DNA of 20,303 bases, from contig JBHLLO010000027.1 in the NCBI GenBank assembly GCA_048885535.1, forward strand, positions 19,687-39,989, written 5' to 3'. A program made the position numbers and the translations under genes. The notes beneath the pieces are model-generated. The model did no database searches. It was not told the origin of the DNA and worked only from the letters and a program-made list of their open reading frames with translations. This document shows positions 2,930-20,303 of this stretch, in pieces; positions within the stretch are counted from its first letter, which is position 1; each line of letters begins with the position of its first letter. This DNA is from Candidatus Hermodarchaeota archaeon (GTDB lineage Archaea; Asgardarchaeota; Lokiarchaeia; Sigyniarchaeales; SOKP01).

Positions 2930-5512
2930 TTACTTTAATTTTTTCCAAGGTTTTCCGAAAAGCATATAGCTTGAAATAGCTAAGGAACTTTTTAAATCAA
3001 TACTTATACTTCCCTGTGTATCGCTTAAATCCTTGAATTTGTTTTCAACAAGTCTAGCCATTTTATCTGCCATGCAGGTTTGTCGAGCTTTCAGAAGTGA
3101 TATTCCTTGGTTGTTTTTATTAAATAAATTCATATAAAAATTTGCACTAATTTCTTTTGTTTCATCATCAAAAATAGGATAATTCCTTGTTACAATTCCG
3201 GTAATTCGCTCATAATCGAATTGCCTTCCAATTTCTCCTAGAGTACTTGGTGCATTCTTTATTCTATTCCCATCAACATCGTATACTTGGGTATTAAAAA
3301 ATAAAAATGGTTCAATAATATGAGTATTTCTTCTAATTGAATTGTTAATTTCTTTAATAGTGATTATTTGATTGTCATTAGTAATAAAGAAACTATCGTT
3401 TGGATTCCAGGGTGAATAAAAAATATTTCCTACGAAATGAATGATATGATATGGTTCGTTTAACATCTTTGATAGAATAGCATCTTTTGTGGCATTTATC
3501 CCTGCAAGTATAGTAATAGTCTCAACTTCTTCTCTTCTATTAAAGAATTCTGTAATAAAATTTAATTCATTGGCGCCAGCGACAAATGGAAAAATGAGTT
3601 CTTTGTTCTTTTCCGCATCATTCCACTTATATGGGCCTAAAGTATTTATTGAGTCGATTAATAATATATTATACTTGGTTAATTGAGTGGTTTTCTCACC
3701 TTTATCCCCTATGCCATGCTCAAAGGTAACTCCTCCTAAAGGAGGTTCTCCTATTATATATCCTATTGAATATTTCAATAAAAAGAAATTATTATCATAA
3801 ACTAATTCAAAGGGGATTGTCATATGATCTAAAATAAAATAGATTTCAGGGATGAATGTAAGGGTTTTGATTTCAAATTGCCTTAGGAGTGTTCGTAATG
3901 ATTTTGGGAGAAAAATGTATAATATTTTTCCAAATTCCATAAGATCAAAATCATATTTCTTCTCTTCTGTTTCAGAGAATATATCATTATAAATGTCATT
4001 AATTTGAGTATCATTCCAATACTCATTTAAAATTTTTCCATCAATAGTATTACCATCTTGTGCCATCATTCTATAAGAAATTAAACCAGCTTCATTAATT
4101 CTAAAAATAATTTGCTTTATAACAAATTGTTCAATTTCGAAATCAAATGAATCCTCTTCAAAGGAGTAAATATTTTGTCTTAGTGCTTCTGTTTCATGAT
4201 ATAATATAGCTGGATCTAAAATTACGGACCTAAGATTTTTATCTAAATACTGAACAATTTTACGTGCAAGATCATAATCTTTTTCTTCAAACAAAGCACG
4301 ATAGAACATCATCCGCCAAAAATCCCGAGGTTCCAATGAAAAAAACATTGAATTAAATTGCCACAAATAGTTACATGTATAAAAATAATGATATATTTGA
4401 GGGTTAGTTTGAGGTATCTTTAAATGGATATTTAATTTTTCAAGTGATTGTAGAAGGTACTTTTTTTCCTTCATATCAACAAACTTCTTACATGCCTCAA
4501 CCCATAATTCAATTAAAATATTATCATATCCTAAATCTGTTTGAGACATAAATAAATCCTCAAGGAAGTCATAAATTTCAAAAGCTATTTCGAATCTATT
4601 CCGCTTAATCGTAAAATCGATATATTTCCTTATATATGTAACAGCATCACCAAATGATTGGAATTTATTTATCTTTTCGAATAGATTTCTAATAATTATT
4701 GGAATCCAAGAGAACTCTCCAATATTATTCAAATAAGAAATTAAAGCTTCAAGATCTATTAAAATGTCATTAAAATTTCTTTCATTTATCGAAAATCTAC
4801 TTAATTTACTAAATTCGTTCTTTAAGTATCCTGGAAGACGGTTTAACAAAATTTTACTTATTACTTGTACAAATTCTGAAGAATCTCCCATAAGATTATA
4901 TTTGAAGTTAATATTTTCTAAAAAGACATATAAAAATAATTCCCTTTTATTAGGTTCCAATTTGAATAAAGTTCTTCCCAAAATTTCCATACTAAAATGA
5001 AAAAATTCTTGAGGTATGACTGATTTTCTCAAATACATTAATAGAATCTGCAATTCAATTAACTTCTGGAACTCATGTTTCTCAATAACTTTAACACAGA
5101 AGGAATTTATAAATTTAGTGATGCCTGTTTGAGATATGTCCTCTGTTGTAATAAATGACTTTAGAAGAGTCGTCCCAAAGTTATTAAAAAGATAAAAATC
5201 ATCCATCTTTGCTAAAAATGAGAAGAAACGCTTGTAAGCATCAATATATTTGATCATATCAATCTCTACTTTTCCTTCTCTTCTTTGAATTAAAGAGTTA
5301 ATGTACATCCACCAAGAATTTGAGATTATCATCATTAATTGATGCTTCTTTTGAATATCTAACCATTCATTTCTTTCAATCTCATAATAAAGATCAGTTA
5401 ATAACCTATCTGCCCATCTATGGTTACCAGAGTGTAATAAACGCCTAGCTTGTATTACGCTCTGTTGAAAATCCTCTAAAAAATTATCACTTTTTTTCAA
5501 AAGAGTAGCCAT
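2930..5512 (-). CDS. Large alpha-helical (TPR-like) protein with C-terminal CHAT (caspase-like) domain lacking the catalytic dyad
   Basis: C-terminal ~340 aa show CHAT hallmarks: IPFELVY, NATKDAILSKM, YHIIHFVGNI (cf. HFAGHG), FLFFNTQ (cf. VFLNAC), FYMNLF...SLLKARQ, YMLFGKP (cf. FVLYGDP). The N-terminal ~450 aa are amphipathic helical repeats. Confidence 0.75.
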   Translation of the reverse strand: MATLLKKSDNFLEDFQQSVIQARRLLHSGNHRWADRLLTDLYYEIERNEWLDIQKKHQLMMIISNSWWMYINSLIQRREGKVEIDMIKYIDAYKRFFSFLAKMDDFYLFNNFGTTLLKSFITTEDISQTGITKFINSFCVKVIEKHEFQKLIELQILLMYLRKSVIPQEFFHFSMEILGRTLFKLEPNKRELFLYVFLENINFKYNLMGDSSEFVQVISKILLNRLPGYLKNEFSKLSRFSINERNFNDILIDLEALISYLNNIGEFSWIPIIIRNLFEKINKFQSFGDAVTYIRKYIDFTIKRNRFEIAFEIYDFLEDLFMSQTDLGYDNILIELWVEACKKFVDMKEKKYLLQSLEKLNIHLKIPQTNPQIYHYFYTCNYLWQFNSMFFSLEPRDFWRMMFYRALFEEKDYDLARKIVQYLDKNLRSVILDPAILYHETEALRQNIYSFEEDSFDFEIEQFVIKQIIFRINEAGLISYRMMAQDGNTIDGKILNEYWNDTQINDIYNDIFSETEEKKYDFDLMEFGKILYIFLPKSLRTLLRQFEIKTLTFIPEIYFILDHMTIPFELVYDNNFFLLKYSIGYIIGEPPLGGVTFEHGIGDKGEKTTQLTKYNILLIDSINTLGPYKWNDAEKNKELIFPFVAGANELNFITEFFNRREEVETITILAGINATKDAILSKMLNEPYHIIHFVGNIFYSPWNPNDSFFITNDNQIITIKEINNSIRRNTHIIEPFLFFNTQVYDVDGNRIKNAPSTLGEIGRQFDYERITGIVTRNYPIFDDETKEISANFYMNLFNKNNQGISLLKARQTCMADKMARLVENKFKDLSDTQGSISIDLKSSLAISSYMLFGKPWKKLK

Positions 5513-5537: not shown

Positions 5538-6680
5538 TTATAAATTTGTGTTTTCAATCCACCCTTTGCTTAACTTTTCTTTCATGTACAATATTGATGC
5601 CCCAATCCATGCCATATTTTCTCTTCCAGAAGCGGCAATAACCTTAATTTTTTCTTTCAGTTTCTCTGAGAAATACTTCTTTAATTCAATTTGAATTCTT
5701 TCATCTAACCCAGGTATTAAACTTCCCCCTCCAGATAGGATAATATTAGACACCAATTCCTCCCAATTTTCTCTTTCCCATGTTTTTATCACTTTTGAAA
5801 TTGCTTCTACTAGACTTATATAATCAATATGGGCTAATCTTGGATTGAATAGGGGTTCTGATAATAAAAATCGTTCTAAATTTAATTTTAAATTAGTTCC
5901 GTCTGGAAGGCTAATTATTCTATCATATTTTGTTAATCCTTCTTTTACTCTTTTCTGCTCTTCTTGAGGATTTAAAACACATAAAGATAATTTTTCTTTG
6001 ATTTCTTTTGCGATTGGTTTATCAATATAAATATTTTTAGATGTGCCTATGCGAGTCAAAATTAGATTTAAAAAGTAATTTGTCAATTCTTTTCCTGCAA
6101 TTGGAAAAACATCTCGAGCCATTATATTTGTGAACCCATGAAAAATCGTAGAAATATACGTAGTGGATTCACCCATGTTCACAACAACCCCACTAGCTTT
6201 TTGAAGAGTAGAAAGTATAGCTTGACTTTCATGTAGGAAAAGGAGGGATGGGAACTTTAATACATTGAAAAATAAATATTGCAACTTCGATTTCTCTAAA
6301 TCTGACATGAAAAAGGGAGATAGAATTATTAAGGGTTGCTTAAATTGATACTTTTCATCAATATCCAACTGTTTATAGTAATGCAAAAAGAACTTAAGAA
6401 GAATATTAAAATTTTTTTCCTTTTTAAATTCATGAATTTTTAAAATGTTTTGATACTTTAATGCTTGATGTCCTACCAAATGTAGTATCTGCTCATTTTT
6501 GAAAAATAATTCTTCTAAGCCCTCAATAACATCGGAACTAAATAAATAGTCAGAAACATCGACATATACGCTTGGAGCAATGATATCTGGAAAGTCATCA
6601 CCTGCCCATCCTATTCTTGAAGTAGCAGTCCCAATATCTAGGATTAAAGGAGTTGTTTGGTCTTTTGATTTCGAGGACAT
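5538..6680 (-). CDS. Actin-related protein (divergent Asgard actin-family member)
   Basis: Colinear actin motifs: LILDIGTATSRIGWAGDDFP, ESQAILST, SGVVVNMGESTTYI, IAGKELTNYF, EIKEKL, LPDGTNLKLNLERFLLSEPLFNP, NIILSGGGSLIPGLDERIQIEL, IKVIAASGRENMAWIGASIL; 380 aa. Confidence 0.96.
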   Translation of the reverse strand: MSSKSKDQTTPLILDIGTATSRIGWAGDDFPDIIAPSVYVDVSDYLFSSDVIEGLEELFFKNEQILHLVGHQALKYQNILKIHEFKKEKNFNILLKFFLHYYKQLDIDEKYQFKQPLIILSPFFMSDLEKSKLQYLFFNVLKFPSLLFLHESQAILSTLQKASGVVVNMGESTTYISTIFHGFTNIMARDVFPIAGKELTNYFLNLILTRIGTSKNIYIDKPIAKEIKEKLSLCVLNPQEEQKRVKEGLTKYDRIISLPDGTNLKLNLERFLLSEPLFNPRLAHIDYISLVEAISKVIKTWERENWEELVSNIILSGGGSLIPGLDERIQIELKKYFSEKLKEKIKVIAASGRENMAWIGASILYMKEKLSKGWIENTNL

Positions 6681-7480: not shown

Positions 7481-7882
7481 TTACTCTAATGGAAGAACCT
7501 CCACCTTAATGGCTTCTCCTTTTTCTTTCAGAACTTTTTTAAGATCTTCAAGATTCTCTGGACTTTCGGAAATAACAGTCCATTCAGCAGTTTTATCTTT
7601 TTCAATAATTACTGCTTCACTATACATCATACTAAGACCTTGTTCACCAAAAGTGCCAGCAAGCTTTGCTAGTGCTCCTGGAATGTCTTTCATGGTAATT
7701 CTGAGCTTTATTGGACTCTTCTCGTCTGATAAACCTATTGGTGTTATTTTAATTTCTTTATTTTCTGAATCAGCAACTAGCATCAACTGTGAATTTGTTG
7801 TAAGACCTAAACTCTTTCGAATTAACTGAGGGATTACAATTCTGCCTCTATTATCAATTGTGATCACTCTAACTTCTTTCAT
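7481..7882 (-). CDS. AbrB/MazE/SpoVT-type DNA-binding domain fused to an ACT domain
   Basis: N-terminal ITIDNRGRIVIPQLIRKSLGL (AbrB swapped-hairpin signature). C-terminal LRITMKDIPGALAKLAGTFGEQGLSM (ACT signature). Confidence 0.9.
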   Translation of the reverse strand: MKEVRVITIDNRGRIVIPQLIRKSLGLTTNSQLMLVADSENKEIKITPIGLSDEKSPIKLRITMKDIPGALAKLAGTFGEQGLSMMYSEAVIIEKDKTAEWTVISESPENLEDLKKVLKEKGEAIKVEVLPLE

Positions 7883-8082: not shown

Positions 8083-8481
8083 TTATTGAATTGCTTTTGA
8101 ATGAGCTTTTGCATTAAGTGGCAATAGTGGTGCGCATACCATTAGCTTACTGACATCACCTTCAACTTCATATGTTCCAGACATAGTTGCTTGAATAGGG
8201 TCTGATTCTCCAGAATTAACCTTTTTAATTGTTGCAAAATCAGTTTTATGGATGATTTTTGGAGCATCAGGTCCATGATATTGACCCATTCCCCAATCCA
8301 TCTTATCTTTATCGACGAATTGCCAATAACTCATCTCAGGTCTATCAGTTATTTCATATTGAAATACTAATGGTGCGATTGGTTCCAACATCTGTGCTAA
8401 ATCTGGTAGTTCATTATAAGCTTTCATAAAGCGTGCGAGATAATCTTCCCATTCCTCTTTTGTGTCCAATTTTACTTTCAC
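8083..8481 (-). CDS. SCP2 sterol/lipid-binding domain protein
   Basis: LVFQYEITD...KIIHKTDFATIKKVNSGESDPIQATMSGTYEVEGDVSKLM matches the SCP2 GxxDPxxAxxxGxxxVxGD pattern. The annotated GTG is part of a GGAGGTG SD-like motif (8479-8485), so the true start may be TTG 8469, 9 nt downstream of it. Confidence 0.85.
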   Translation of the reverse strand: MKVKLDTKEEWEDYLARFMKAYNELPDLAQMLEPIAPLVFQYEITDRPEMSYWQFVDKDKMDWGMGQYHGPDAPKIIHKTDFATIKKVNSGESDPIQATMSGTYEVEGDVSKLMVCAPLLPLNAKAHSKAIQ

Positions 8482-8552: not shown

Positions 8553-9725
8553 TCATTTATAAGTTTCAAGTCCAGCTTTGCAACCCATAGCTAAGAAATC
8601 TACCATCTTTCCATTATAATCATTTTCAATCTTATAATAAAGACCATTTTGGGTGAATGTAACCCCCCAAATTGCTTTTTTCGAATCGCTTTGGAGTGGT
8701 GTATTTCTTAGAAAATCTTTTATTAGTGGATGAAAATGTATGGGTACATCTTTTAGATCATCACATGATATCCCAAAACAAAGACGTTCAACTTTTTCTG
8801 AATCCCAACTAAACGTATAATTTAAATGAGCTGCTTTCATACATCCTTCCATTACCTCTTTTGATGCAGACTTAAATCCTAAATCCTCGACAAGCGCTAT
8901 ACAGTTATCATATGTTGCTTTTGGTGGTTGTTTCAGCATGAAATAAATATTAGTAGTTTTATGTAGAAAATCAAATGCAAACAAACTAAATGATGTTAGT
9001 CCATGCTTATTAAAGTATTCTCGATAATTTTTCATGCTTTCTGGTATATATCTCATAGAAAAAATTGGATCAATTGATCCAGGTACAATGAATGGCCAGA
9101 TTTTTGATAATCCCATACTTGCATCTACATCAACTCCATAACCCATCATCTGAAAACTCTCCATAGCTTCAATGATCATATCATGAATTGGATGACCATC
9201 TTTTTCAATTAAGCCTTCTTTAATAGCATTTGTATAAGGATCTGGATTATGTGGCATAAAAAATTCGACATATCTTAGTGCAACATCTCTATATTCGACC
9301 GGTTTTGTCGTAGTTCTAATTGATATGGGTGCTCCAGCAAAGAACTCCCTATATGCTGCGAAAGCCTTTTTAACTGCTTCTTCATTAAAGTTTACTCCTG
9401 TTACTTCACAGATTTTTGCAAAATCTTTAAGCATCTGTTCCAAGTCATTTGTACATTTGAAGTTAGACTTCACCTTAGGTAAGTAAAGATCATAATCTAC
9501 ACCTAATTCTTTAAGATCTGCCATCATAACCGGTTGAAATGCAGTAGGTGTGATTTCAAATAGTGCCACAATGAGATCGATTTCAGCTACTATTTTACCT
9601 TGACGCTCTATGCATTTGTTTTCAGCGCTTTGAAGCAATTGAGGTCCTATAACTGGCCTTACCATTTCTGGCATATTTAAAACTATTTTTTCATAAAGAT
9701 TTTTTACTTCAGGTTCCCATTCCAT
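8553..9725 (-). CDS. Soluble aromatic prenyltransferase (ABBA fold, NphB/CloQ type) with an N-terminal 81-aa DUF2621/PCP_red-like helical module
   Basis: After residue ~90, colinear NphB-like motifs: DPYTNAIKEGLIEKDGHPIHDMI, YGVDVDASMGLSKIWPF, IPESMKNYREYFNKHGL, AFDFLHKTTNIYF, IALVEDLGF, YTFSWDSEKVERLCFGI, WGVTFTQNGLYYKIENDY. No DDxxD motif and no TM helices. Confidence 0.9.
   Translation of the reverse strand: MEWEPEVKNLYEKIVLNMPEMVRPVIGPQLLQSAENKCIERQGKIVAEIDLIVALFEITPTAFQPVMMADLKELGVDYDLYLPKVKSNFKCTNDLEQMLKDFAKICEVTGVNFNEEAVKKAFAAYREFFAGAPISIRTTTKPVEYRDVALRYVEFFMPHNPDPYTNAIKEGLIEKDGHPIHDMIIEAMESFQMMGYGVDVDASMGLSKIWPFIVPGSIDPIFSMRYIPESMKNYREYFNKHGLTSFSLFAFDFLHKTTNIYFMLKQPPKATYDNCIALVEDLGFKSASKEVMEGCMKAAHLNYTFSWDSEKVERLCFGISCDDLKDVPIHFHPLIKDFLRNTPLQSDSKKAIWGVTFTQNGLYYKIENDYNGKMVDFLAMGCKAGLETYK
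9483..9725 (-). repeat. Shared 81-aa N-terminal module, copy 3 (on the prenyltransferase)
   Basis: Ungapped alignment with copies at 12371-12613 and 13751-13993; 22 of 81 positions invariant across all three by manual count. Confidence 0.92.
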
Positions 9726-9780
9726 ACTTTTTTCACTCTTTTTTGTTACCTTACAATTCTCAAAAAAAATTATTTAATAT

Positions 9781-11205
9781 TTATGCTAAATATTTAGCAA
9801 ATTGTAAATTACTTAATTCGGCAAACCCGTCTGGGTTATTAAACCCAAGTCCAGGCATCATCCATCTCGGATTTTTTTTCCCATAATCCCTTACTACTTG
9901 ATAAAGGTCGATATCTTTGATTTTTGGAGAAATATAAAATTTAGGCTTAAGTAAATTTTCTCCTTTCGAAATAATCCCTTCCTCCTCTGCAATTCGCTGA
10001 AGAGGAGTATGTGGATAGATCCTCATTCCAATAAATACAATTACATCTCCATCTCCTTGCCATAAATTCCCTCTATAACTCTCAATAGTCTCTAAGCGAT
10101 CCAGTGACGCTCGAACTGTTTCAAGTGTTTCCCCTGGACCTCCAACAATTATATGAATTAATTGTTCAATTTCTAAATCAACACATTTCTTGGAGGTCTG
10201 AATCGCCTCATCTGGGGATCTGTTTTTATTCATATTTTTTAACATTTCTCTAGATAATGATTCAATACCCGTTGCGAAATGCACTGCACCACTTTCTCTC
10301 ATCAGTGGCATTAAGTCAAGGAACTTCTCACTGGGGACATAATTAGCACCCCATTTTACATCTATTTTATGATTAATAATCTCATTACAGGTTTGCTTGA
10401 CATGATCATAATTCAAATTGAAAATACTGTCAACAATAAAAATATTTTGAATTCCATAATTATTTACTATTAAATCTAATTCCTCCGCTATGTTTTCAGG
10501 CGACCGATAACGAACATTCGAACCTTCAATGTATTTATAGCTACAATAAATACAATTCATTGGACAGCCCCTTTTTGTTTGGATATTTCCCCAGAAAGGC
10601 CCAGATTTATTCAAAGGTTCTATAAGATATGCGTCATTATCAATTATCTCTCGAATTGGAATTGGTAGATCATCTAAATTTTCAACCCTCCATGGTGGAT
10701 TCTGATGAAACTCACCTTTATTGTCTAAGAAACATAGCCCTTTCTTGATAGTTCTAGGGTCTTCATCATTACTAATTTTTTTCAATATCTCTGCGAAAAC
10801 ATATTCTCCATCGCCGATAACACCCAAACTATGGTTCAAATCTCTTAAAATCTCCTCAGCAAATATTGAAAATCCTGCTCCACCTAAAATAATTGGAATA
10901 TATGGTTCTACAAGGTTTTTGATGTATTGAATAATACTTCTCACTGGTAAGTAGAAGAAAAGATTCCCTGGATATGTAGTTGAATCAACATTCCGTATTG
11001 AAATCCCTATTACTTGTGGATTAAAATTATCAATTGTTTTTGAAACATCCTTCTTATAATCATCACTTAACGTTAAATCAAGTAATTTCACATCATGACC
11101 TTGACTAATCAAATAAGATGCTAGATATGCTTCTCCTAGTGGCGGAACCATCACATGAACAATTTCTCGACTTCCAGAAAGTATCAATACTCGCATCATT
11201 CCCAC
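9781..11205 (-). CDS. Cobalamin-dependent radical SAM enzyme (B12-binding + radical SAM), probable methyltransferase
   Basis: B12-binding domain PPLGEAYLASYL...GHDVKLLDL...VIGISIRNVD...IILGGAGFS...GDGE. CxxxCxxC motif in QTKRGCPMNCIYC, then DSIFN, GGPGET, GMRIYPHT. The start may be one of the ATGs just after the GTG. Confidence 0.93.
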   Translation of the reverse strand: MGMMRVLILSGSREIVHVMVPPLGEAYLASYLISQGHDVKLLDLTLSDDYKKDVSKTIDNFNPQVIGISIRNVDSTTYPGNLFFYLPVRSIIQYIKNLVEPYIPIILGGAGFSIFAEEILRDLNHSLGVIGDGEYVFAEILKKISNDEDPRTIKKGLCFLDNKGEFHQNPPWRVENLDDLPIPIREIIDNDAYLIEPLNKSGPFWGNIQTKRGCPMNCIYCSYKYIEGSNVRYRSPENIAEELDLIVNNYGIQNIFIVDSIFNLNYDHVKQTCNEIINHKIDVKWGANYVPSEKFLDLMPLMRESGAVHFATGIESLSREMLKNMNKNRSPDEAIQTSKKCVDLEIEQLIHIIVGGPGETLETVRASLDRLETIESYRGNLWQGDGDVIVFIGMRIYPHTPLQRIAEEEGIISKGENLLKPKFYISPKIKDIDLYQVVRDYGKKNPRWMMPGLGFNNPDGFAELSNLQFAKYLA

Positions 11206-11212
11206 TCAAATC

Positions 11213-12613
11213 TTATTTTAGCAATTCAATTTCTTTTTTATCTAAGGCATTACCTTCATGTTCGTGATCATTTTCATGCCAACAAAAAGGAAATGAACCA
11301 AAAAAGTCTCCAGTTATATATTCTGCAGTAACACGACATCCTCCTCCACAATACTTAAGATGATGGCAAAAAGCACATTTTCCCTTTATCTTTTTTCTAT
11401 CGCGAATATCTTTATAAAGTTGGGAATTCAGTACATCCTCAAAATTATCCTTTAAAGCATTTCCAAGTGTTAACGTAGTAGGATAACCAGCAGGATATAT
11501 TGTTCCATCTATACCTATCCCCATCATCGTTCTACAAGCTAAGCAGCCCACCCCCCATTCAATAGCTGCCATTTCTTTGTCATCTTTAGGTTGCTCCATA
11601 AATGGTACCATATCATAGATTTCATAAGCAGGTAAGGTTCCGGTTTTTCCGTTTCTTATCGTTTCAATAGCGTGTCTATATTTAAAATCATACATTTTTT
11701 TATATTCTTCCTTATCAAGCCCGATCTCATTCCAGAATTGAGCAGCTCGATTTTGTTTAACCACACATCTAAAATATGGTTGTGAACCCCATCTTTCAGA
11801 TAATTCTTTAAGAGCTTCCAATTCATCAATATTTTGTTTCATGACTGTGATTGACGAACATACAAAAATCCCATATTTTAAGCAAAGGTCTATTGCTTTT
11901 TTAGCATACTTTAAGGAATTAGGGAAACCTCTTATCTGATCATTCTTTTCCGAGTCTGCACTGTCAAAACTGACAAATATGTGACTTATATTATTCTCTT
12001 TACACATTTTAACAAACTTTTCGGTAAACTGAACTCCGTTCGTAATGAGAGCATGAATGTAATCTTTTTCCTTACAAAATCTCATAATCTCACCAATATC
12101 TTTACGTAATGTAGGTTCACCACCAAACCAAACAAAACAGGCATGTCTACCTTGTTTCCTTAAACCCGTTTCAATATTTTCTACTATATTACACCATTCA
12201 TCTGTGGATAATTCTACTCGTGGTATTAGATCATCAGCAGCACAGTGAATACATTTTTGATTACATTTATCTGTAAGATACATCGCAAAGTGAATGTTTC
12301 CCGGATGAAACCCTCTTTCTAGTTTCTGCCAGGAAACTTTAAGGCGATCCTTTATATCTTTCAATTCTATATAACGTTCCACATCAATGCCTAGCTTTGT
12401 TAAATCCTCAACCATTACAGGTTTAAAAGCTTCAGGGATAATATCAAAAATCCCTAAAATTACATCATTATCACTAATATAACCACCATTTCGTTCAAGA
12501 CATCTTTTTTTTGCGGCTTCTACGATTAAGGGTTCAACTGATGGTCTAAATCCCTGAGGCATTTGTTCTACTATTCGATTGAATAATATTTGAGTTTCTA
12601 CTTCCCATTCCAT
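11213..12613 (-). CDS. Radical SAM/SPASM protein, paralogue 2, with N-terminal 81-aa shared module
   Basis: TDKCNQKCIHC, FGGEPTLRKD, ITNG, VSFDS...DQIRG; SPASM GCLAC...YPAG...KCAFCHHLKYCGGGCR...PFCW. NirJ/AhbC/AhbD/PqqE-like architecture. Confidence 0.93.
   Translation of the reverse strand: MEWEVETQILFNRIVEQMPQGFRPSVEPLIVEAAKKRCLERNGGYISDNDVILGIFDIIPEAFKPVMVEDLTKLGIDVERYIELKDIKDRLKVSWQKLERGFHPGNIHFAMYLTDKCNQKCIHCAADDLIPRVELSTDEWCNIVENIETGLRKQGRHACFVWFGGEPTLRKDIGEIMRFCKEKDYIHALITNGVQFTEKFVKMCKENNISHIFVSFDSADSEKNDQIRGFPNSLKYAKKAIDLCLKYGIFVCSSITVMKQNIDELEALKELSERWGSQPYFRCVVKQNRAAQFWNEIGLDKEEYKKMYDFKYRHAIETIRNGKTGTLPAYEIYDMVPFMEQPKDDKEMAAIEWGVGCLACRTMMGIGIDGTIYPAGYPTTLTLGNALKDNFEDVLNSQLYKDIRDRKKIKGKCAFCHHLKYCGGGCRVTAEYITGDFFGSFPFCWHENDHEHEGNALDKKEIELLK
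12234..12266. repeat. 33-bp exact direct repeat, also at 13614-13646
   Basis: tcagcagcacagtgaatacatttttgattacat occurs twice, 1380 nt apart, and encodes CNQKCIHCAA in both SPASM paralogues. Confidence 0.9.
12371..12613 (-). repeat. Shared 81-aa N-terminal module, copy 2
   Basis: MEWEVETQILFNRIVEQMPQGFRP...IFDIIPEAFKPVMVEDLTKLGIDVERY aligns without gaps to the other two copies. Confidence 0.92.
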
Positions 12614-12625
12614 TAACTTACACCC

Positions 12626-13993
12626 TTAAGAACAACCTTCATGTTTATGGTCATCTTCGTGCCAACAGAACGGAAGTGCTGCCAAGAAATCTCCTGTTTC
12701 ATTTTCAGCGTGAACTCGGCAACCACCCCCACATAATTCAAGATGGTGACAAGTTGAGCATCTCCCTTTTACCTTTCTGTCCCTAATAGCCTTGAACGTT
12801 TCAGATTCCATTATTTCATTAAAATCTTGTTTGAAGACATTACCCAAGGTTAATTTAGAGGGATAATCACATGGAAAAAAATCTCCATTGACATCAATCC
12901 CTGAAACAGACCGGCATGCTTGACACCCTACCCCCCACTCTAAGGCAGTACGTTCTTCATCAGTGCGAGGACATTCCATAAAAGGTACCATATCATATGT
13001 ATACACTTTATTTAAAAATGAAGCTTCCCCTTTCCTAACTGCTTCAACCACATGCCTATATTTGAAATCATAAAATTGGCGATATTCATCATAATCTAAT
13101 CCAATATCATCCCAGTTTTTGTCTGCTGTTCGTTGTTTAATTACGGCTCTAAAATAAGGTATAGCACCTAAAGTCTCTAATTTCTTTTTAATTTCTTCCA
13201 ATTCATCAAAATTTTCTTTCTGAACGGTTGCCGTACAAATTACTAAGTGCCCATAATCTATAGCCAATTTTATAGCTTTCTCAGCAGCTTCCCCTGCTTT
13301 AGGAACTCCACGAATTTTCGCAGCCTTTTCATGATAAATACTGTCATAACTGATGAATACATGATGCATCTTGGCTTCAGCACAGAGTTTGGCTAAATCT
13401 TCATTGAATAACATACCATTAGTGGAAATGGCTTGGTAATATCCTTTTTCGCCACAATATTTTATTAGATCTGCGAGATCCTTACGAAGAGTTGGTTCTC
13501 CGCCAAACCATATATAGCATCCTCTTCTACCTTGTTTTCTCAATGTTTGTTCCACATTCTCAATTATCTTTATCCATTCCTCTGTGGAAAATTCTGGACG
13601 TTGATCCATTAATTCAGCAGCACAGTGAATACATTTTTGATTACATCTATCAGTTAGATAGACTGTAAAATGATAAACTCCAGGAGCCCACGCACCTCCA
13701 ATTTCATCCCAAGAACGAGCATACTTTTTTCTAATTTCTGATAGTTTTACATATCGCTCGGTATCGATTCCTAATTTCTTCAAATCCTCAATAACAGTAG
13801 GTTGAAATGCATCAGGAGTTATTTCAAATAAAGCAGATAGCAAATCATCTCTACTTACAAAACCAGAGTTCCTAAGTATTGCTGTCTTTTCAGCAGCTTT
13901 ACGTAACATTGGTGCTACAGACATGCGAAAAGCCTCAGGAACCTGCTCTGTAACTTGTTTATATAATTCTTCAATTTCTTCTGTCCAATCCAT
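12626..13993 (-). CDS. Radical SAM/SPASM protein, paralogue 1, with N-terminal 81-aa shared module
   Basis: TDRCNQKCIHC, FGGEPTLRKD, STNG, ISYDS...KIRG; SPASM GCQAC...FPCD...RCSTCHHLELCGGGCR...PFCW. AGAGGT SD-like motif upstream of ATG 13993. Confidence 0.94.
   Translation of the reverse strand: MDWTEEIEELYKQVTEQVPEAFRMSVAPMLRKAAEKTAILRNSGFVSRDDLLSALFEITPDAFQPTVIEDLKKLGIDTERYVKLSEIRKKYARSWDEIGGAWAPGVYHFTVYLTDRCNQKCIHCAAELMDQRPEFSTEEWIKIIENVEQTLRKQGRRGCYIWFGGEPTLRKDLADLIKYCGEKGYYQAISTNGMLFNEDLAKLCAEAKMHHVFISYDSIYHEKAAKIRGVPKAGEAAEKAIKLAIDYGHLVICTATVQKENFDELEEIKKKLETLGAIPYFRAVIKQRTADKNWDDIGLDYDEYRQFYDFKYRHVVEAVRKGEASFLNKVYTYDMVPFMECPRTDEERTALEWGVGCQACRSVSGIDVNGDFFPCDYPSKLTLGNVFKQDFNEIMESETFKAIRDRKVKGRCSTCHHLELCGGGCRVHAENETGDFLAALPFCWHEDDHKHEGCS
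13751..13993 (-). repeat. Shared 81-aa N-terminal module, copy 1
   Basis: MDWTEEIEELYKQVTEQVPEAFRM...LFEITPDAFQPTVIEDLKKLGIDTERY aligns without gaps to the other two copies. Confidence 0.92.
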
Positions 13994-14091: not shown

Positions 14092-14787
14092 TTATTGGCC
14101 CCCCTCCATTTGAAGATATCTGTTAGAAGTAGATTGTCTATAAAATTTGATTAATAAATGGAAAATCCTAAAAGATTTAAGAAATAGTAGGATACTAGGA
14201 TTCCCAAAGACTTTATGGTATTTCCTAAAAAAATATTTTGGTCTTTTTCTTAGAATTTTATTTTTGAAGTTTTCATTAAAATGAAATTTATAATCCTTCT
14301 CTTTAATCTGAAAAACACTATGATTCTTAATTTGAAAATCGTTATTATTAGGAAGATAATTTAAACTATTATCATGATTAAATAGAATTTCTGAATCTTG
14401 AATTGAAAAGTAAATTAATTCTTTAGATCCAAGAGAATCAACATTCAAGTCCATTAAAACTCGAGAATAAACATTCAAGTATACCTTTTTGACAAAATAA
14501 TGATAAATGCTGGTCTGAATATAACCAATTGCGTTAATTAAAATAACTATGTCAATTAAATGCCCAAGACTAAAGAAGAAAGGTTCGGGCAGGAACCATA
14601 ATAAATTTATCTTGGGTAAAAATGGAATAAAAATAGAACTACCTGAACCAAAATAATCACTAAAGAAAATTGATAGCTCTGAAATATCTCTTAAGAATAA
14701 ATAAAGGAGTGTAACTGGTATACACAGAAAAATGAAAATTAAAATTAAAACCGCCTTTAATTTCTTAAATTTTTTGTCATCCTGCAC
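14092..14787 (-). CDS. Hypothetical membrane protein
   Basis: GTG start with GGAG upstream. Hydrophobic segments AVLILIFIFLCIPVTLLYLFL and FFFSLGHLIDIVILINAIGYI; basic, aromatic-rich C-terminus. No family recognised. Confidence 0.55.
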   Translation of the reverse strand: MQDDKKFKKLKAVLILIFIFLCIPVTLLYLFLRDISELSIFFSDYFGSGSSIFIPFLPKINLLWFLPEPFFFSLGHLIDIVILINAIGYIQTSIYHYFVKKVYLNVYSRVLMDLNVDSLGSKELIYFSIQDSEILFNHDNSLNYLPNNNDFQIKNHSVFQIKEKDYKFHFNENFKNKILRKRPKYFFRKYHKVFGNPSILLFLKSFRIFHLLIKFYRQSTSNRYLQMEGGQ

Positions 14788-14994: not shown

Positions 14995-17169
14995 TTAAAT
15001 CTCATGTTTGTGTGCTTTTAACTTCACTGTCAAATCTCGAGCTCTTTTCGAATACCAAATTAAAAGTTCTCCCGCATCTTCTGGCTCAAAATATTCTCCT
15101 CCACATAGCGATGCTGCTCTAATCATTAGCTCACGATCAGGATTTCCTAACCCCACAATGTAAATAACTACGTTAGGATTCTCGGCAAATAACTTGACAG
15201 CTTTAAAGAAATCGTCACCATCTGTAGGAACCCCATCCGTTAAGAGAACAACCATCGTAGGTTGATCAGGATTCATTTTATCGAATTCTGTTAGAACCTG
15301 ATAAGATTTTGCCATTGCTTGCCCCATATTAGTAGCTTGTCCATAAGCATTTCCTATACGATCCACTATCATGCGAGCGGCATCTTCAAGTACTCCTTTT
15401 TTACCACTGGCGGAATCCATATAAAAGCTATCCATAAAGGGTAAGATCTGAGCCTCATCAGCAAATCGAATGACAGAAACTTTTTCACCAAATCCTCGCC
15501 CTACTTTTTCGCTCAGGAACAACACAGCAGCAAAAGCCGCGGCAATTCTTCTTGGAATATTCACACCTGGTTTGAAATGGACTAGAAATTCCTGAATCTC
15601 TCGTGATTCCATAGCAGCCTTAATCCCTTCAATTGCTGGAGCAATATTAGTAACAAGTACGTCACGCGCCATCATACTTCTGCTGATGTCAATTATCAAA
15701 ATAGCATTAAATGGGATTAAACCTGTTGGGGTCAAGTTAATTGCTGTATTTGGAGTAATTTGAGCAAAGATATCACCTGTTAAATCTGGAACTGTTGATA
15801 ATAAAGAACAAGCAATATTAACTGCGCTCCATCTCAATTTAATTCCTTTGAATATTATATAGTTTGATAACCATCCTTTTAATGAATCTACATTTTGTCG
15901 TGCTGTACTGATTATTTCCCACATGTTTTCTCCACTAATTGGATTAATTCCAAGAGAAACATTTTGTAATGGTATAATTGGTCGTAAATTCTTATATACT
16001 TTGACTTCAAAACTACCAATACCAGAAGCCTCTAAAATCTCACTATCAATTGTAATTGCATTAGAGGGCGTAGCTTCGGAAATCTCAACTTTAGCTGCAC
16101 CTATTGCACCCGTAAGTTCATCTTCAAAGGCTAAAATATCATCTTGCATAATAGATAGTGTATGCTGAGTTCTGGGGCTTACATGGCAATATCCTAAAAG
16201 ATTTGGTTGAGAATGTACTTCAAGCATAATCTCTGATGCCTTTTGTATAGGAGGTTCAGTTGAATAAACTAGAATTTGTTGTGCTTGAATATTTGTATCT
16301 TCTTTAGTGTTTCTACCCATTCGAATCTCATTAGGATTTATCATTGCCTCACTAATTCTCGCGGAACCAGTTGATCGTGTTAATGGATCTTCCCATCCAA
16401 TAAGCATGCCAGTTCCTAATCCTAATTGAAGAACGGTAGAACTACTCAACTGAACTCTTCCGCCTTCAATGTTATTGTCCACAACAGGAGTAAGAATTAT
16501 CCCTCCTTTCTGACTTTGGAGCATGTATATATCAATTCTATTAGGATATTGTTCTGTTGGTGTAACTTGAACACCAAAATCTTGCCCTCCAATCGGTGCC
16601 TGTGTTGGTTGTGGAATCGTTTGAGGAGGAGGTGGTGAAGTTATGGGCGGAGGTGTGGGTGTTAATTGTGGCGTTGGAGCAGGAGTTGGAGCTGGAGGTC
16701 TTGGTTTAGGTTGTGGAGGGGGAACTTGAGTTGGTTGCGGTGGTGGTGCTTGTTGGGGGATTGGTGTTGGAGTTTGATATGGTTGAGGAGGTGGGCTAGA
16801 TTTTTCAGTGGGTGGTGTAGGAAGTGGGGTAAGACCTGGTTGAGTTTGTGGTTTTGGAGGTGAAGTGCTAGGAACTTTTGGTATCTGCAGTTTAGGGGCT
16901 ACTAATCCTGTTTTACTCATAGGTCGTATTATTAATTCTACTCCACTAAATTGCAATTCATCTACAAGGTTCCTGGAAATTTGAGCTGCAAAATCTAATA
17001 CCATATTTGAAATTTCTATTGTCCCAACAACTTTTTTATTATTATCTGGATTTTCTATTTCAACAGATGCTCCATTAGATACACCTAATTTAGTAGCATT
17101 TTCTTGACAAATTACCACCTTGTTAGTGGTATTTTCATTAACATCAACAAAAACTTTTAATTCAGACAT
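14995..17169 (-). CDS. Multidomain protein: three CDC48-N-like double-psi beta-barrel repeats, Pro-rich linker, CDC48 domain-2-like segment, C-terminal vWA domain
   Basis: vWA MIDAS: ILIIDISRSM, ATNMGQAM, VVLLTDGVP, IYIVGLG, ASLCGGEYF. Three repeats of the pattern V.i.....LGv..G..v..Ed......g.v.i.......i.i. About 100 aa of P/Q/T-rich sequence between repeats 1 and 2. Confidence 0.8.
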   Translation of the reverse strand: MSELKVFVDVNENTTNKVVICQENATKLGVSNGASVEIENPDNNKKVVGTIEISNMVLDFAAQISRNLVDELQFSGVELIIRPMSKTGLVAPKLQIPKVPSTSPPKPQTQPGLTPLPTPPTEKSSPPPQPYQTPTPIPQQAPPPQPTQVPPPQPKPRPPAPTPAPTPQLTPTPPPITSPPPPQTIPQPTQAPIGGQDFGVQVTPTEQYPNRIDIYMLQSQKGGIILTPVVDNNIEGGRVQLSSSTVLQLGLGTGMLIGWEDPLTRSTGSARISEAMINPNEIRMGRNTKEDTNIQAQQILVYSTEPPIQKASEIMLEVHSQPNLLGYCHVSPRTQHTLSIMQDDILAFEDELTGAIGAAKVEISEATPSNAITIDSEILEASGIGSFEVKVYKNLRPIIPLQNVSLGINPISGENMWEIISTARQNVDSLKGWLSNYIIFKGIKLRWSAVNIACSLLSTVPDLTGDIFAQITPNTAINLTPTGLIPFNAILIIDISRSMMARDVLVTNIAPAIEGIKAAMESREIQEFLVHFKPGVNIPRRIAAAFAAVLFLSEKVGRGFGEKVSVIRFADEAQILPFMDSFYMDSASGKKGVLEDAARMIVDRIGNAYGQATNMGQAMAKSYQVLTEFDKMNPDQPTMVVLLTDGVPTDGDDFFKAVKLFAENPNVVIYIVGLGNPDRELMIRAASLCGGEYFEPEDAGELLIWYSKRARDLTVKLKAHKHEI
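16595..16900 (-). repeat. Proline-rich low-complexity coding segment
   Basis: PPKPQTQP...SSPPPQP...APPPQPTQVPPPQPKPRPPAPTPAPTP...TPPPITSPPPPQ; visible as a G/T-rich tract on the plus strand. Confidence 0.9.
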
Positions 17170-17265: not shown

Positions 17266-17655
17266 TTACACTAATGGGTATCTCTTTGAAATTTCTCCTG
17301 CATAATAACGAAATACAGATACAATCTTGCCTAGATCTTCCACTTTTCGACTTGCCCCCATAAGGAAAAATCTACCGGCTGCACTTAGTATTATAAATGC
17401 ATTTTCCCCTCTTAATACAACCTCTAGTAAATCAGTATAACCTAGAGAATCAATCGCATCCTGTCCGCTTTGCATTACAACAGCACTTAAACTAGAAAAT
17501 AAATCTGGATCTACTTCGTAATCTGGGATGCATGAAAATGCGAGTCTTAAACCATCACGAGTTACAAGGGCAAGAGCTTCCAACTCTGTATATTCCGTTA
17601 TACTTCCAAGGAATTTGGATAAACTATGAGCTTCTTCTGGTGTTAAATCACTCAT
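17266..17655 (-). CDS. Roadblock/LC7 (MglB-like) domain protein
   Basis: LEALALVTRDGLRLA...LFSSLSAVVMQSGQDAIDSLGYTDLLEVVLRGENAFIILSAAG...DLGKI; 129 aa. Confidence 0.92.
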   Translation of the reverse strand: MSDLTPEEAHSLSKFLGSITEYTELEALALVTRDGLRLAFSCIPDYEVDPDLFSSLSAVVMQSGQDAIDSLGYTDLLEVVLRGENAFIILSAAGRFFLMGASRKVEDLGKIVSVFRYYAGEISKRYPLV

Positions 17656-18812: not shown

Positions 18813-20303
18813 TCAAAATTTTTGTAATGTTAGTAAAGCTGGATCAATGTTTTGAATCATATCCATAGCACTAAACCTTGGACCTACGTTTTCTTTACAA
18901 TATTCACCTAGATATCCATTAAAGAATGCAGCTGAACAAGCAGATTCCAAAACTTTATTATCTGTTGCTAGAAAACATCCACAAAGCCCAGCTAGAACAT
19001 CTCCAGTTCCGCCGATAGACATTTCGGGGCAACCCGTTCGATTAATCTTTAGTTTAACTCCATTAGTAATATAATCGTATGGACCTTTAACTAAAAGTGT
19101 AATTTTTAACTTTTTTGCTGTGTCAAAAATTATTTTTCCTCGTTGTTCAATTTTCTCAAATGAGGGTAAATCGAGATTAGTCATAATTTTAAATTCTCCA
19201 GCATGAGGCGTTAGGATCACATTTTGATTTTTAATCAAATCTAGATGGGTTTTAACCAATTTCAAAGCATCTGCATCAAGGACATAAGGCTTCTTATCTT
19301 TCCTCAAATAATTCAGAATTTGTACCAATAATTCTTCAGTTTCATCTTCTAAGCCTAATCCTGGACCTATTACTAAGGAATTTGACCAATCTATTAGAGA
19401 TTTTAAGTCCTCGAATGCTATTTTTGTTAACCAATCTCCAGGAGTTTGTCTTACGATTAGATTAGGAGAATAACTTCTAATAACATCAGCTATAATCCCT
19501 GGTACATAGGTTATTACTAAATCACAACCAAAATTAATGCAAGTAAGAGATGAATATGCAGGAGCTCCAGAATAATTCTTCGATCCACCAATAACTAAAA
19601 CTCTTCCAAATTGACCTTTATGATAATCTATTTCTCTTACTTTCAATGTTGGCAGTAAATCACCTCGTCCGACAAATATAGTAGCTTCTTGAGGAATACC
19701 TATTGACTTTACCATTAACTCGTTTATATATTCTGTTTTAGGATGCATTCCTCTTTTCATCCTATGAAAAGTAATCACTAAGTCTGCTACAATTGCCTTA
19801 TCTAAGACTTCACCAGTATTTGGATCTAATCCACTTGGTACATCAATTGAAACTACATTAATTTTAAACTGGTTTCTGATTTCATTAATAAAATCTATAA
19901 CAGTAGCAAGCGGTTCCCTAAGTTTCCCCTTAATTCCTGTACCTAAAAGGCCATCAATGATCAACTTAATATTTTTATCTTCTTCTAATAATATTCCAAT
20001 CTTTCCAATATCAGTTGAATCTTTTATAATTTCAATTCTTATTGATAATTCTAAATTATATCTTATTATTTCCCAATTTAATTTTGCCGCTTTGGTGGTA
20101 ATTTTATTAGGATCACCCACTAAAACTACAATACTATTGATCCCAAACGAATTTAAATGACGAGCGACTACGAAACCATCTCCCCCATTATTACCAGTGC
20201 CACAAAAAATTAGAACTTTAGAATGTGAGCCCAAATTATATTTAGTTACAATTTCTGATGCGAATGAATATCCAGCACATTCCATTAAATGACTTTTTGG
20301 AAT
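18813..20303 (-). CDS. nnr: Bifunctional NAD(P)HX epimerase / NAD(P)HX dehydratase (YjeF); 5' end outside the window
   Basis: LMECAG, FCGTGNNGGDGFVVARHL, IIDGLLGTG, SIDVPSG, HKGQFGRVLVIGGSKNYSGAP, VIGPGLG, VLDADAL, ILTPHAGEF, GGTGDVLAG. The frame stays open upstream of Met 20285 to the window edge (IPKSHLMECAG). Confidence 0.97.
   Translation of the reverse strand: MPKSHLMECAGYSFASEIVTKYNLGSHSKVLIFCGTGNNGGDGFVVARHLNSFGINSIVVLVGDPNKITTKAAKLNWEIIRYNLELSIRIEIIKDSTDIGKIGILLEEDKNIKLIIDGLLGTGIKGKLREPLATVIDFINEIRNQFKINVVSIDVPSGLDPNTGEVLDKAIVADLVITFHRMKRGMHPKTEYINELMVKSIGIPQEATIFVGRGDLLPTLKVREIDYHKGQFGRVLVIGGSKNYSGAPAYSSLTCINFGCDLVITYVPGIIADVIRSYSPNLIVRQTPGDWLTKIAFEDLKSLIDWSNSLVIGPGLGLEDETEELLVQILNYLRKDKKPYVLDADALKLVKTHLDLIKNQNVILTPHAGEFKIMTNLDLPSFEKIEQRGKIIFDTAKKLKITLLVKGPYDYITNGVKLKINRTGCPEMSIGGTGDVLAGLCGCFLATDNKVLESACSAAFFNGYLGEYCKENVGPRFSAMDMIQNIDPALLTLQKF

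Follow-up and report, generated by a model that had tools for sequence, protein, structure and literature searches.

RREs, the recognition elements of pathways for ribosomally synthesized and post-translationally modified peptides (RiPPs), are fused to unrelated enzymes of one gene cluster and also occur free-standing. Together with docking domains they illustrate the known principle of a shared accessory domain. For the ubiquinone (Ubi) pathway, the accessible text of PMC6747719 describes an SCP2 domain in UbiJ that binds ubiquinone intermediates and organises a multi-enzyme complex, and an SCP2 protein, UbiT, that works with the U32 proteins UbiU and UbiV; ubiT and ubiU are fused in Zymomonas, and no shared tag domain is mentioned there for this system. 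Here we analysed a 20,303-nucleotide stretch of the Candidatus Hermodarchaeota archaeon contig JBHLLO010000027.1 (positions 19,687 to 39,989; hereafter the window), in which a module of about 81-85 residues is attached to two radical SAM-SPASM enzymes and to an aromatic prenyltransferase encoded beside an SCP2-fold lipid-carrier protein. The module is a real domain with a confidently predicted fold; it is mobile, its fusion partners are restricted, and its copies are clustered. The role that suits it best, which we propose tentatively, is that of a non-catalytic protein-protein adaptor around a hydrophobic intermediate bound to SCP2. The domain family is already catalogued; new are this fold as a putative shared tag, its set of partners, and the cluster it marks.

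The three copies in the window form residues 1-84 of radical SAM-SPASM enzyme 1 (13742..13993, minus strand), of radical SAM-SPASM enzyme 2 (12362..12613, minus strand), and of the prenyltransferase (9474..9725, minus strand). The original prediction, made from the sequence and its open reading frames (ORFs) alone, had described an ungapped alignment of 81 amino acids (aa) across these proteins. We recovered this alignment with exactly the 22 invariant columns named there: M1, W3, E6, L10, P19, R23, P28, A34, R41, D50, F56, I58, P60, A62, F63, P65, D70, L71, L74, G75, D77, and Y81 (its start coordinate, 9483, is the last base of prenyltransferase codon 81). Over the first 85 residues, again without gaps, enzyme 2 and the prenyltransferase are 45% and 41% identical to enzyme 1. 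A BLASTP comparison of the whole prenyltransferase with the whole of enzyme 1 gave a single significant segment, residues 1-82 of both proteins (43% identity, ungapped, E=3e-20), with all remaining segments at E>=14; at this E value between otherwise unrelated proteins, the shared N-terminal segment is not a chance match. Enzymes 1 and 2 are 50% identical across 454 residues with one gap, which indicates a whole-gene duplication that included the module, and duplication accounts for the two SPASM copies as had been suggested.

We searched the window's own 3.09-Mb genome (G000) with a profile built from the three window copies, taking hits at E<=1, and found four places. Three are the window copies themselves, with E values of 7.1e-45 for enzyme 1 (G000:C27:33428-33679), 3.9e-46 for enzyme 2, and 5.4e-45 for the prenyltransferase. 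The fourth, on contig C11, is the C-terminal end, some 80 residues, of a Peptidase_U32 protein of 471 aa. Since none of these places falls on the B12-binding radical SAM enzyme (9781-11205) or on the SCP2 protein (8083-8481), both lack the module, in agreement with the original prediction. The same prediction had placed the module on two unrelated enzyme folds; the radical SAM-SPASM and prenyltransferase folds stand, but the count does not, because the fourth copy at the end of the U32 protein makes three.

The U32-module gene (C11:2751-4166, minus strand; L004:1498-2913 in our extracted locus) has directly upstream of it a gene for a 490-aa B12-like radical SAM protein (C11:4320-5792, minus strand), and the pair, G000:C11:2751-5792, forms a second locus of the same pathway in this genome. 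Within the U32 group, eight cysteines are invariant in 17/17 sequences. Four of them make up an extra C-x3-C-x2-C-x2-C motif at residues 333-343, just before the module, and the others are Cys 76, 182, 186, and 218, a pattern that suggests two Fe-S sites. At the syntenic locus of a related genome, G018, the B12-like gene is followed only by an 83-aa module ORF, 77% identical to the U32 C-terminus, which is either a remnant or a free-standing copy.

AlphaFold2, given the isolated 85 residues and a 34-sequence alignment, predicts a compact helical domain (pLDDT 94.4, pTM 0.84) with helices at residues 5-15, 20-40, 48-58, 61-73, and 79-82. The only other element is a two-residue bridge between residues 2-3 and 44-45, and the all-helical look noted earlier is thus borne out by the model. 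A single-sequence prediction of the full prenyltransferase (pLDDT 34.6) was unusable. Across the 34 members of the alignment, two positions (W3 and P60) never vary and four more (P19, A34, D50, and G75) hardly do; no Cys or His is among the conserved ones.

The best Pfam match of all four copies is DUF2621 (PF11084), which scores 23.0 bits on copy 1, 20.8 and 17.4 bits on the other window copies, and 21.6 bits on the U32 copy, none of which reaches the gathering cut-off of 27.7 bits. The match spans model positions 52/57-116/138 of 139, with 57-138 covered by the window copies, and the N-terminal ~55 positions of the family model are absent from the module. PCP_red (PF08369), whose cut-off is 32.5 bits, reaches 15.9 bits on the enzyme 1 copy and does not match the remaining two window copies. 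Both families become significant in the 34 aligned relatives, where at E<=0.01 DUF2621 matches 30/34 (best E 3.4e-12) and PCP_red matches 10/34 (best E 7.1e-7). In a protein atlas, the module lies nearest to bacterial clusters of ~85 aa, 22-47% of whose members carry DUF2621. The window copies are likely homologous to DUF2621 although they score under the strict cut-off, and we place the module, as a divergent member, in the uncharacterised DUF2621/PCP_red superfamily. The resemblance to these families named in the original prediction is real, being significant in the relatives and under the cut-offs in the window copies. Full-text searches, with subscription journals outside their coverage, returned no paper on DUF2621 and only unrelated papers for PF08369 and PCP_red.

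PCP_red has been solved as the Chlorobium tepidum BchB domain (2KRU) and also matches 2L09 (Asr4154, Nostoc). Like the module it is a small helical domain, and the first ~45 residues of the two share a W...P-F-x-R...A-E...R-G...V...D pattern. The module is ~35 residues longer, with two more helices. PCP_red ends subunit B of a nitrogenase-like enzyme, light-independent protochlorophyllide reductase (DPOR), whereas the module sits on radical SAM, prenyltransferase, U32, and SCP2 proteins. The accessible portions of the DPOR literature (PMC12022308, PMC4071322, PMC13474568) describe a BchB C-terminal helix that covers the substrate cavity and give no role to PCP_red.

Structure searches returned folds of the same general type. 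Foldseek found nothing in the PDB at E<=0.001; it gave the PCP_red-type domain 2l09 at E 0.31 and probability 0.93. In an independent search of 48,161 chains, AAA+ lid domains ranked first (BchI 1g8p, Z 8.3, root-mean-square deviation (rmsd) 2.8, 72 aligned; MCM subunits, Z 7.0-7.9; the Rpt3 C-domain 2dzn_B, Z 7.2, rmsd 1.7, 57/57 aligned). The PCP_red-type structures 2kru (Z 5.5, rmsd 2.7, 60/63 residues) and 2l09 (Z 6.3, rmsd 3.2, 57/62 residues) aligned over nearly their whole length. All these Z values, for the lid domains as well, fall in a range that the tool itself rates as common and middling among helical models; they characterise the type of fold and are no proof of kinship. The AAA+ lid shares its helix-strand-helix core with the module, but at 8-18% identity, and no P-loop core precedes the module; we rejected this identity given the absence of an AAA+/P-loop domain from every host protein and a likeness of Z 7-8.5 only. 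A histone fold was also rejected, as neither an hmmsearch of solved chains (E 0.066) nor the Foldseek matches to H2B chains (E 0.19-0.55, rmsd 7-11 Å) were significant, and we read these matches as a shared helix-strand-helix motif only.

To survey fusion partners, a four-sequence profile was searched against 1.84 billion representative proteins. It gave 433 hits at E<=0.001, and the best 150 of the 433 were classified into 89 genuine hits (a single domain of at least 45 bits) and 61 large TPR/STAND proteins. Among the 89 genuine hits in this best 150, 38 are module-only proteins of ~80-105 aa, some of which may be fragments. Another 19 are U32 proteins (module C-terminal in 18, internal in 1), 16 are prenyltransferases (12 N-terminal, 2 C-terminal, 2 ambiguous with radical SAM), and 8 are radical SAM-SPASM proteins (7 N-terminal, the last, P0071, arranged LuxC-module-radical SAM-SPASM). 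One is an SCP2-module protein (P0042), and the remaining 7 have short extensions of no identified family. With a 34-sequence profile, 74/74 longer proteins carry U32, radical SAM/SPASM, or PTase_Orf2, or are fragments. Their source names are "U32 family peptidase", "radical SAM protein", or "hypothetical" only, and the free-standing forms are all named "hypothetical protein".

The 61 TPR_10/TPR_12/STAND proteins are an artefact of the thin four-sequence profile, and we rejected identity with a TPR unit: the 34-sequence profile gives any match on only 22 of them, at 10.2 bits or less against at least 45 bits for the genuine hits, and no TPR family in Pfam matches the modules. As a side observation, the four-sequence profile reached these proteins (P0008, P0017, P0019, and 58 others) at whole-protein E values down to 7e-25 by summing many weak stretches, up to 12 in a protein; hits to a thin profile of a helical domain thus call for care.

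The position of the module varies widely. It is C-terminal on the prenyltransferases P0012, P0016, L061, and L065, behind hydrophilic linkers of ~30 residues, and the length of the linker between module and prenyltransferase ranges from ~10 to ~30 residues. One U32 protein of genome G010 carries tandem modules (residues 371-450 and 468-544). The 1104-aa protein P0028 is organised as U32-module-(Alkyl_sulf_C)-SCP2-module, and one of its domains is recognised by two models, over residues 414-450 by PCP_red (28 bits) and over residues 399-477 by the module profile (58.5 bits). Genome G012 encodes a 683-aa U32-module-SCP2 triple fusion (L032:12048-14099), whose C-terminus is matched by our A5 SCP2 profile (E 1.5e-73), with Pfam SCP2 silent at E<=0.01. 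Of 301 genomes sampled evenly from the phylum, 26 contain the module, and 6/26 of these (G070, G164, G211, G290, and G299 besides G012) have open frames of 668-698 aa around it. The fusions P0042, P0028, and G012 link the module to the SCP2 carrier. A third radical SAM-SPASM enzyme, absent from the window, is itself fused C-terminally to SCP2 in proteins of 503-506 aa (L064:12278-13798, L065:6463-7983, L058:12294-13805). The original prediction held that the prenyltransferase copy requires domain shuffling, and the module's occurrence N- or C-terminally on prenyltransferases, C-terminally on U32 proteins, internally between LuxC and radical SAM, in tandem, and free-standing agrees with it. Since the isolated 85 residues are confidently predicted to fold and module-only proteins exist, the module is supported as an autonomous, mobile domain.

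A quick maximum-likelihood tree of 124 modules over 89 columns, with 62/121 inner branches unresolved, clusters the modules by host enzyme type. The three window copies fall in a supported 54-row set of SPASM and prenyltransferase modules, apart from a 70-row set of U32 and free-standing modules, and the supported branches require several independent fusion events. Between orthologues, the module trails the catalytic part to which it is attached by 0-19 points of identity; by this measure, the module is under constraint, but looser constraint than the enzymes.

The cluster itself occurs in several variants. In G018 the gene order is U32-SPASM1-SPASM2-B12-prenyltransferase-SCP2, with similar orders in G015, G012, and G010, so that the U32 gene is inside the main cluster in relatives, as opposed to its separate locus in the window's genome. 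Two or three U32 paralogues lie side by side in G012 and L060. In the Helarchaeota- and Thermoplasmata-labelled records, the prenyltransferase carries its module C-terminally rather than N-terminally, and the SPASM1-type enzyme of the Thermoplasmata-labelled record has no module. The smallest variant, a minimal cluster in L039, consists of genes for SPASM1-module, SCP2, and U32-module alone. In more distant relatives (L071 in G026 and L072 in G027), the U32-module gene stands with copies of the gene for the membrane-type protein found upstream of the window's cluster, B12-like radical SAM genes, LuxC, and LuxE, and these loci also hold genes for a CDP-alcohol phosphatidyltransferase and a family-2 glycosyltransferase. 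LuxC is an acyl-CoA reductase and LuxE an acyl-protein synthetase. These surroundings of the U32-module gene resemble lipid biosynthesis, judging from the families present.

Among 41 related genomes, the module occurs in 15 and the SCP2 family in 10, all 10 of which are module-positive. The membrane-type protein, encoded upstream of the cluster in the window, occurs in 12/41, of which 11/12 are module-positive. In the even sample of the phylum, module-positive genomes belong mostly to one family (22/68), plus the window's own genome. Of the 103 module copies in the 26 genomes, 90 have a second copy on the same contig no more than 20 kb away, and short contigs carry most of the 13 lone ones. 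The original prediction would have been refuted by a profile that found the module on many unrelated, unclustered proteins. This was not seen, as the identified partners come from few families and 90/103 copies lie near another. As the positive genomes are kin, the co-occurrence mainly reflects a single accessory cluster that is acquired or lost whole. Among public records, the nearest are metagenome-assembled genomes with the labels Promethearchaeota, Promethearchaeia, Thorarchaeota, Helarchaeota, and one Thermoplasmata; across the Promethearchaeota-labelled archaea the cluster has a patchy distribution. The Thermoplasmata-labelled chromosome (L065) holds the cluster genes at 41-65% identity, and a bacterial-labelled record named Candidatus Deferrimicrobium sp. 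(P0318) holds the SCP2 at 63% identity; these occurrences may represent horizontal transfer or mis-binning.

The combination of an SCP2 carrier with U32 Fe-S proteins in one gene set, and of SCP2-U32 fusions, is shared with the Ubi system as described in the accessible text of PMC6747719. As in a Ubi-type context, SCP2 here accompanies U32 proteins with conserved four-Cys Fe-S motifs. No match reaches the equivalog level in NCBIfam, where the U32 protein scores 18.4 bits against 440 for UbiU and 33.1 against 534 for TrhP, and the SCP2 protein has zero matches. The U32 protein also differs from UbiU and UbiV in its Cys spacing and its eight conserved cysteines, and the cluster's radical SAM-SPASM, B12-radical SAM, and soluble ABBA prenyltransferase enzymes are not Ubi enzymes. 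The SCP2-organised Ubi machinery is a precedent for an adaptor role of the module.

The module has repeatedly become attached to soluble proteins of one accessory cluster: the two radical SAM-SPASM enzymes, the ABBA prenyltransferase, the U32-type Fe-S protein, and elsewhere the SCP2 carrier. In an adaptor role, the copies would associate mutually, or each would dock on a common partner encoded by the cluster. The enzymes would thereby be held beside the SCP2-bound hydrophobic intermediate, which could move from enzyme to enzyme without release. An adaptor fits best because the module folds autonomously, is free in position, follows variable hydrophilic linkers, occurs in tandem and free-standing, is fused to a non-enzymatic carrier, is restricted to the proteins of one cluster, and has no cofactor or catalytic signature. 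It is from this pattern that we infer protein binding. By gene-fusion logic, the SCP2-module fusions together with the direct enzyme-SCP2 fusions make SCP2 a plausible partner, although these fusions fit module-module association equally well. When SCP2 (29-row alignment) and the module (34-row alignment) were modelled as a complex, the scores were 0.00 and 0.01, where the mark is 0.32; this weighs neither for nor against binding. The original prediction, that the module oligomerises the enzymes or docks each on a common partner, is overall partly supported.

Several points weigh against an adaptor. Homology gives no lead to protein binding, since the accessible portions of the literature state no function for PCP_red, the sole relative that is characterised, which ends DPOR subunit B. 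Tagging is incomplete, as in the loci examined the module is missing from every B12 enzyme and from the SCP2 protein of the window's genome. Many of the free-standing copies are bacterial, and the sole context recovered for one, a 1.5-kb metagenome contig (L069), is not this cluster; its neighbours are a protein without a Pfam match and a ketopantoate-reductase-like gene. With 89 columns, the tree leaves about half of its inner branches (62/121) unresolved. Finally, the co-occurrence of module, SCP2, and membrane-type protein is mostly the presence or absence of one cluster among kin and is not independent evidence.

The main rival to the adaptor is a substrate handle or active-site lid, which we consider possible but doubtful. 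The module would then bind a feature common to the intermediates, such as their head group or a chain of prenyl or alkyl type, or cap an active site in cis or in trans, and each enzyme would recognise the same hydrophobic substrate. The kinship with PCP_red, in the 10/34 members and in the alignment to 2kru, points this way, as does the location of the identified fusion partners next to an SCP2 lipid carrier in the cluster. In the accessible text of PMC12022308, BchB helix 398-420 reaches in trans to the other half's substrate, but the helix is not identified there as the PCP_red domain. Beyond W3, D50, and structural Pro/Gly/Ala residues, the family has no conserved polar or aromatic residues of a ligand-binding type. 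A fixed lid also sits poorly with a module found at either end of the same prenyltransferase fold, with linkers of ~10 to ~30 residues, and with tandem copies.

Docking on a cluster protein other than SCP2 that lacks the module, either the membrane-type protein (14092-14787) or a B12-radical SAM enzyme, is a special case of the adaptor with another partner, and we regard it as rather unlikely. Soluble enzymes would in this way reach a substrate that is embedded in the membrane. Even in distant relatives without this SCP2 family (G026, G027, G029), the membrane-type protein goes together with module genes, and 11/12 genomes with it also hold the module. As for the B12 enzyme, a B12-like radical SAM gene lies directly upstream of the U32-module gene here and of the module-only ORF in G018. 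Set against these, the case consists of adjacency and of co-occurrence among kin only, and four module-positive genomes (78-95% complete, or with the cluster cut by a contig end) have no match to the membrane-type protein.

A generic stabilising or solubility domain, without a specific partner and kept by inheritance, is improbable. In its favour, no member of the family has a known function, and the module's rate of evolution is somewhat above that of the catalytic domains. It would hardly explain independent fusions in differing positions to the same few clustered proteins, or the retention of free-standing copies.

More improbable still is an RRE-like element that would stand in for the PqqD-type RRE and bind the leader peptide, or the protein substrate, which the enzymes go on to modify. 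The distribution of the module mimics that of RREs, radical SAM-SPASM enzymes and prenyltransferases occur in RiPP pathways, and there are weak NCBIfam matches to peptide maturases. The PqqD-like RRE, an ~80-90-aa non-catalytic domain found on unrelated cluster enzymes and as a stand-alone protein, resembles the module as a functional analogy only, since an RRE is a winged helix with a beta-sheet, and the module is a helical bundle with no Pfam PqqD match at E<=10 and no three-stranded sheet in its model. The original prediction was right that it is unlike a PqqD-type RRE. No conserved small ORF that could encode a precursor peptide was seen in the intergenic regions of the window and five related loci, and the SCP2, U32, and LuxC/LuxE partners indicate a lipid-like substrate, not a peptide.

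The least probable role is an electron-donor docking site or Fe-S assembly helper for redox enzymes, as the original prediction had also entertained for the common partner: the radical SAM-SPASM and U32 proteins carry Fe-S clusters that need reduction (the U32 group with its eight invariant Cys), but prenyltransferases and SCP2 proteins carry the module yet need no reductant, B12-radical SAM enzymes need one and never carry the module in the loci examined, and the module has no conserved Cys or His.

In the window, the five genes of the cluster are packed closely on the minus strand, with gaps of 12, 7, 55, and 71 nt. Radical SAM-SPASM enzyme 1 (12626-13993, minus strand, 455 aa) contains the Pfam domains Radical_SAM (residues 112-271) and SPASM (357-416), its linker and catalytic part occupying 12626..13741. 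Enzyme 2 (11213-12613, minus strand, 466 aa) has the same Pfam domains, and its catalytic part (11213..12361) belongs to the full-length paralogue of enzyme 1. In NCBIfam, both are closest to the NirJ, AhbD, and AhbC models, far under their cut-offs; enzyme 1 scores 129-138 bits with NirJ1, AhbD, and AhbC against cut-offs of 500-650. The B12-binding radical SAM enzyme (9781-11205, minus strand; Pfam B12-binding and Radical_SAM) is closest to TIGR04072, "lipid biosynthesis B12-binding/radical SAM protein" (272.8 bits, cut-off 360), and also lies near the BzaD model, far under its cut-off. The ABBA (Orf2-type) aromatic prenyltransferase (8553-9725, minus strand, 390 aa) matches PTase_Orf2 over residues 94-378 (Pfam E 2.6e-50), and its catalytic part spans 8553..9473. 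By this match it is a clear member of the Orf2/ABBA family. Its solved homologues AmbP1, AmbP3, 4ee6, 1zb6, and CloQ (304-335 aa) lack the module, as their alignments begin only at query residue 93-160. The SCP2-fold lipid-carrier protein (8083-8481, minus strand), without the module in this genome, scores 27.7 bits with Pfam SCP2, and its family shows 59-85% identity over 105 hits.

The conserved small protein of no known family encoded 98 nt upstream of the cluster (14092-14787, minus strand) has no Pfam match. We read it as membrane-type from its hydrophobic stretches, and in an alignment of 11 homologues from cluster loci its conservation is limited to the N-terminal ~100 residues. A promoter and terminator scan was near the shuffled expectation (44 vs 36.3 and 4 vs 3.2) and is uninformative, the consensus sites being bacterial and the host archaeal.

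The cluster is flanked by genes for an actin-family protein (5538-6680, minus strand; Pfam Actin E 1.7e-48) and a Roadblock/LC7 protein (17266-17655, minus strand). The actin gene, a gene for a 243-aa protein, and an AbrB/ACT gene (7481-7882) keep their synteny with the cluster in G018 and G010. Between the membrane-type and Roadblock/LC7 genes, 14995-17169 (minus strand) encodes a 724-aa protein that has a von Willebrand A domain at its C-terminus and a long low-complexity stretch rich in Pro/Thr/Gln; the G+C content here is 0.38-0.41, compared with ~0.30 in the rest of the window. The window also holds genes for an 860-aa CHAT-domain protein (2930-5512, minus strand), an N6-DNA-methylase/Eco57I-type protein that extends past the window end (3-2114, minus strand), and a bifunctional NAD(P)H-hydrate repair enzyme (YjeF_N and Carb_kinase; 18813-20285, minus strand).

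The cluster unites enzyme types whose characterised relatives act without oxygen on quinones, tetrapyrroles, and lipids. Given the SCP2 carrier and the U32 and LuxC/LuxE neighbours, we infer that the substrate and product of the pathway are hydrophobic, the product being a prenylated aromatic compound or a tailored lipid. A more far-reaching picture, which we offer as speculation and think unlikely, is that Asgard-type archaea make a hydrophobic metabolite on a previously undescribed assembly line guided by a carrier, and that the module is its recognition element, the lipid-pathway equivalent of an RRE. Tags on every enzyme, and sometimes on SCP2, would then assemble an oxygen-independent complex of radical SAM, B12-radical SAM, U32, and prenyltransferase proteins that makes a new prenylated redox cofactor or a tailored membrane lipid. 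A full-text search, with subscription journals and supplements outside its coverage, found no paper on fusions of the module, on PCP_red in connection with radical SAM proteins, on an archaeal UbiU/UbiT-radical SAM association, or on an Asgard aromatic prenyltransferase.

If the module is an assembly tag, this would be the first functional hypothesis for the widespread, uncharacterised DUF2621/PCP_red group. The module would also be a simple genomic marker for members of the pathway, as RREs are for peptide natural products, and a practical handle through which the pathway complex could be pulled down. Because LuxC, LuxE, CDP-alcohol phosphatidyltransferase, and glycosyltransferase genes adjoin the U32-module gene in distant relatives, the pathway may bear on the building or tailoring of membrane lipids, or of membrane electron carriers, in these archaea.

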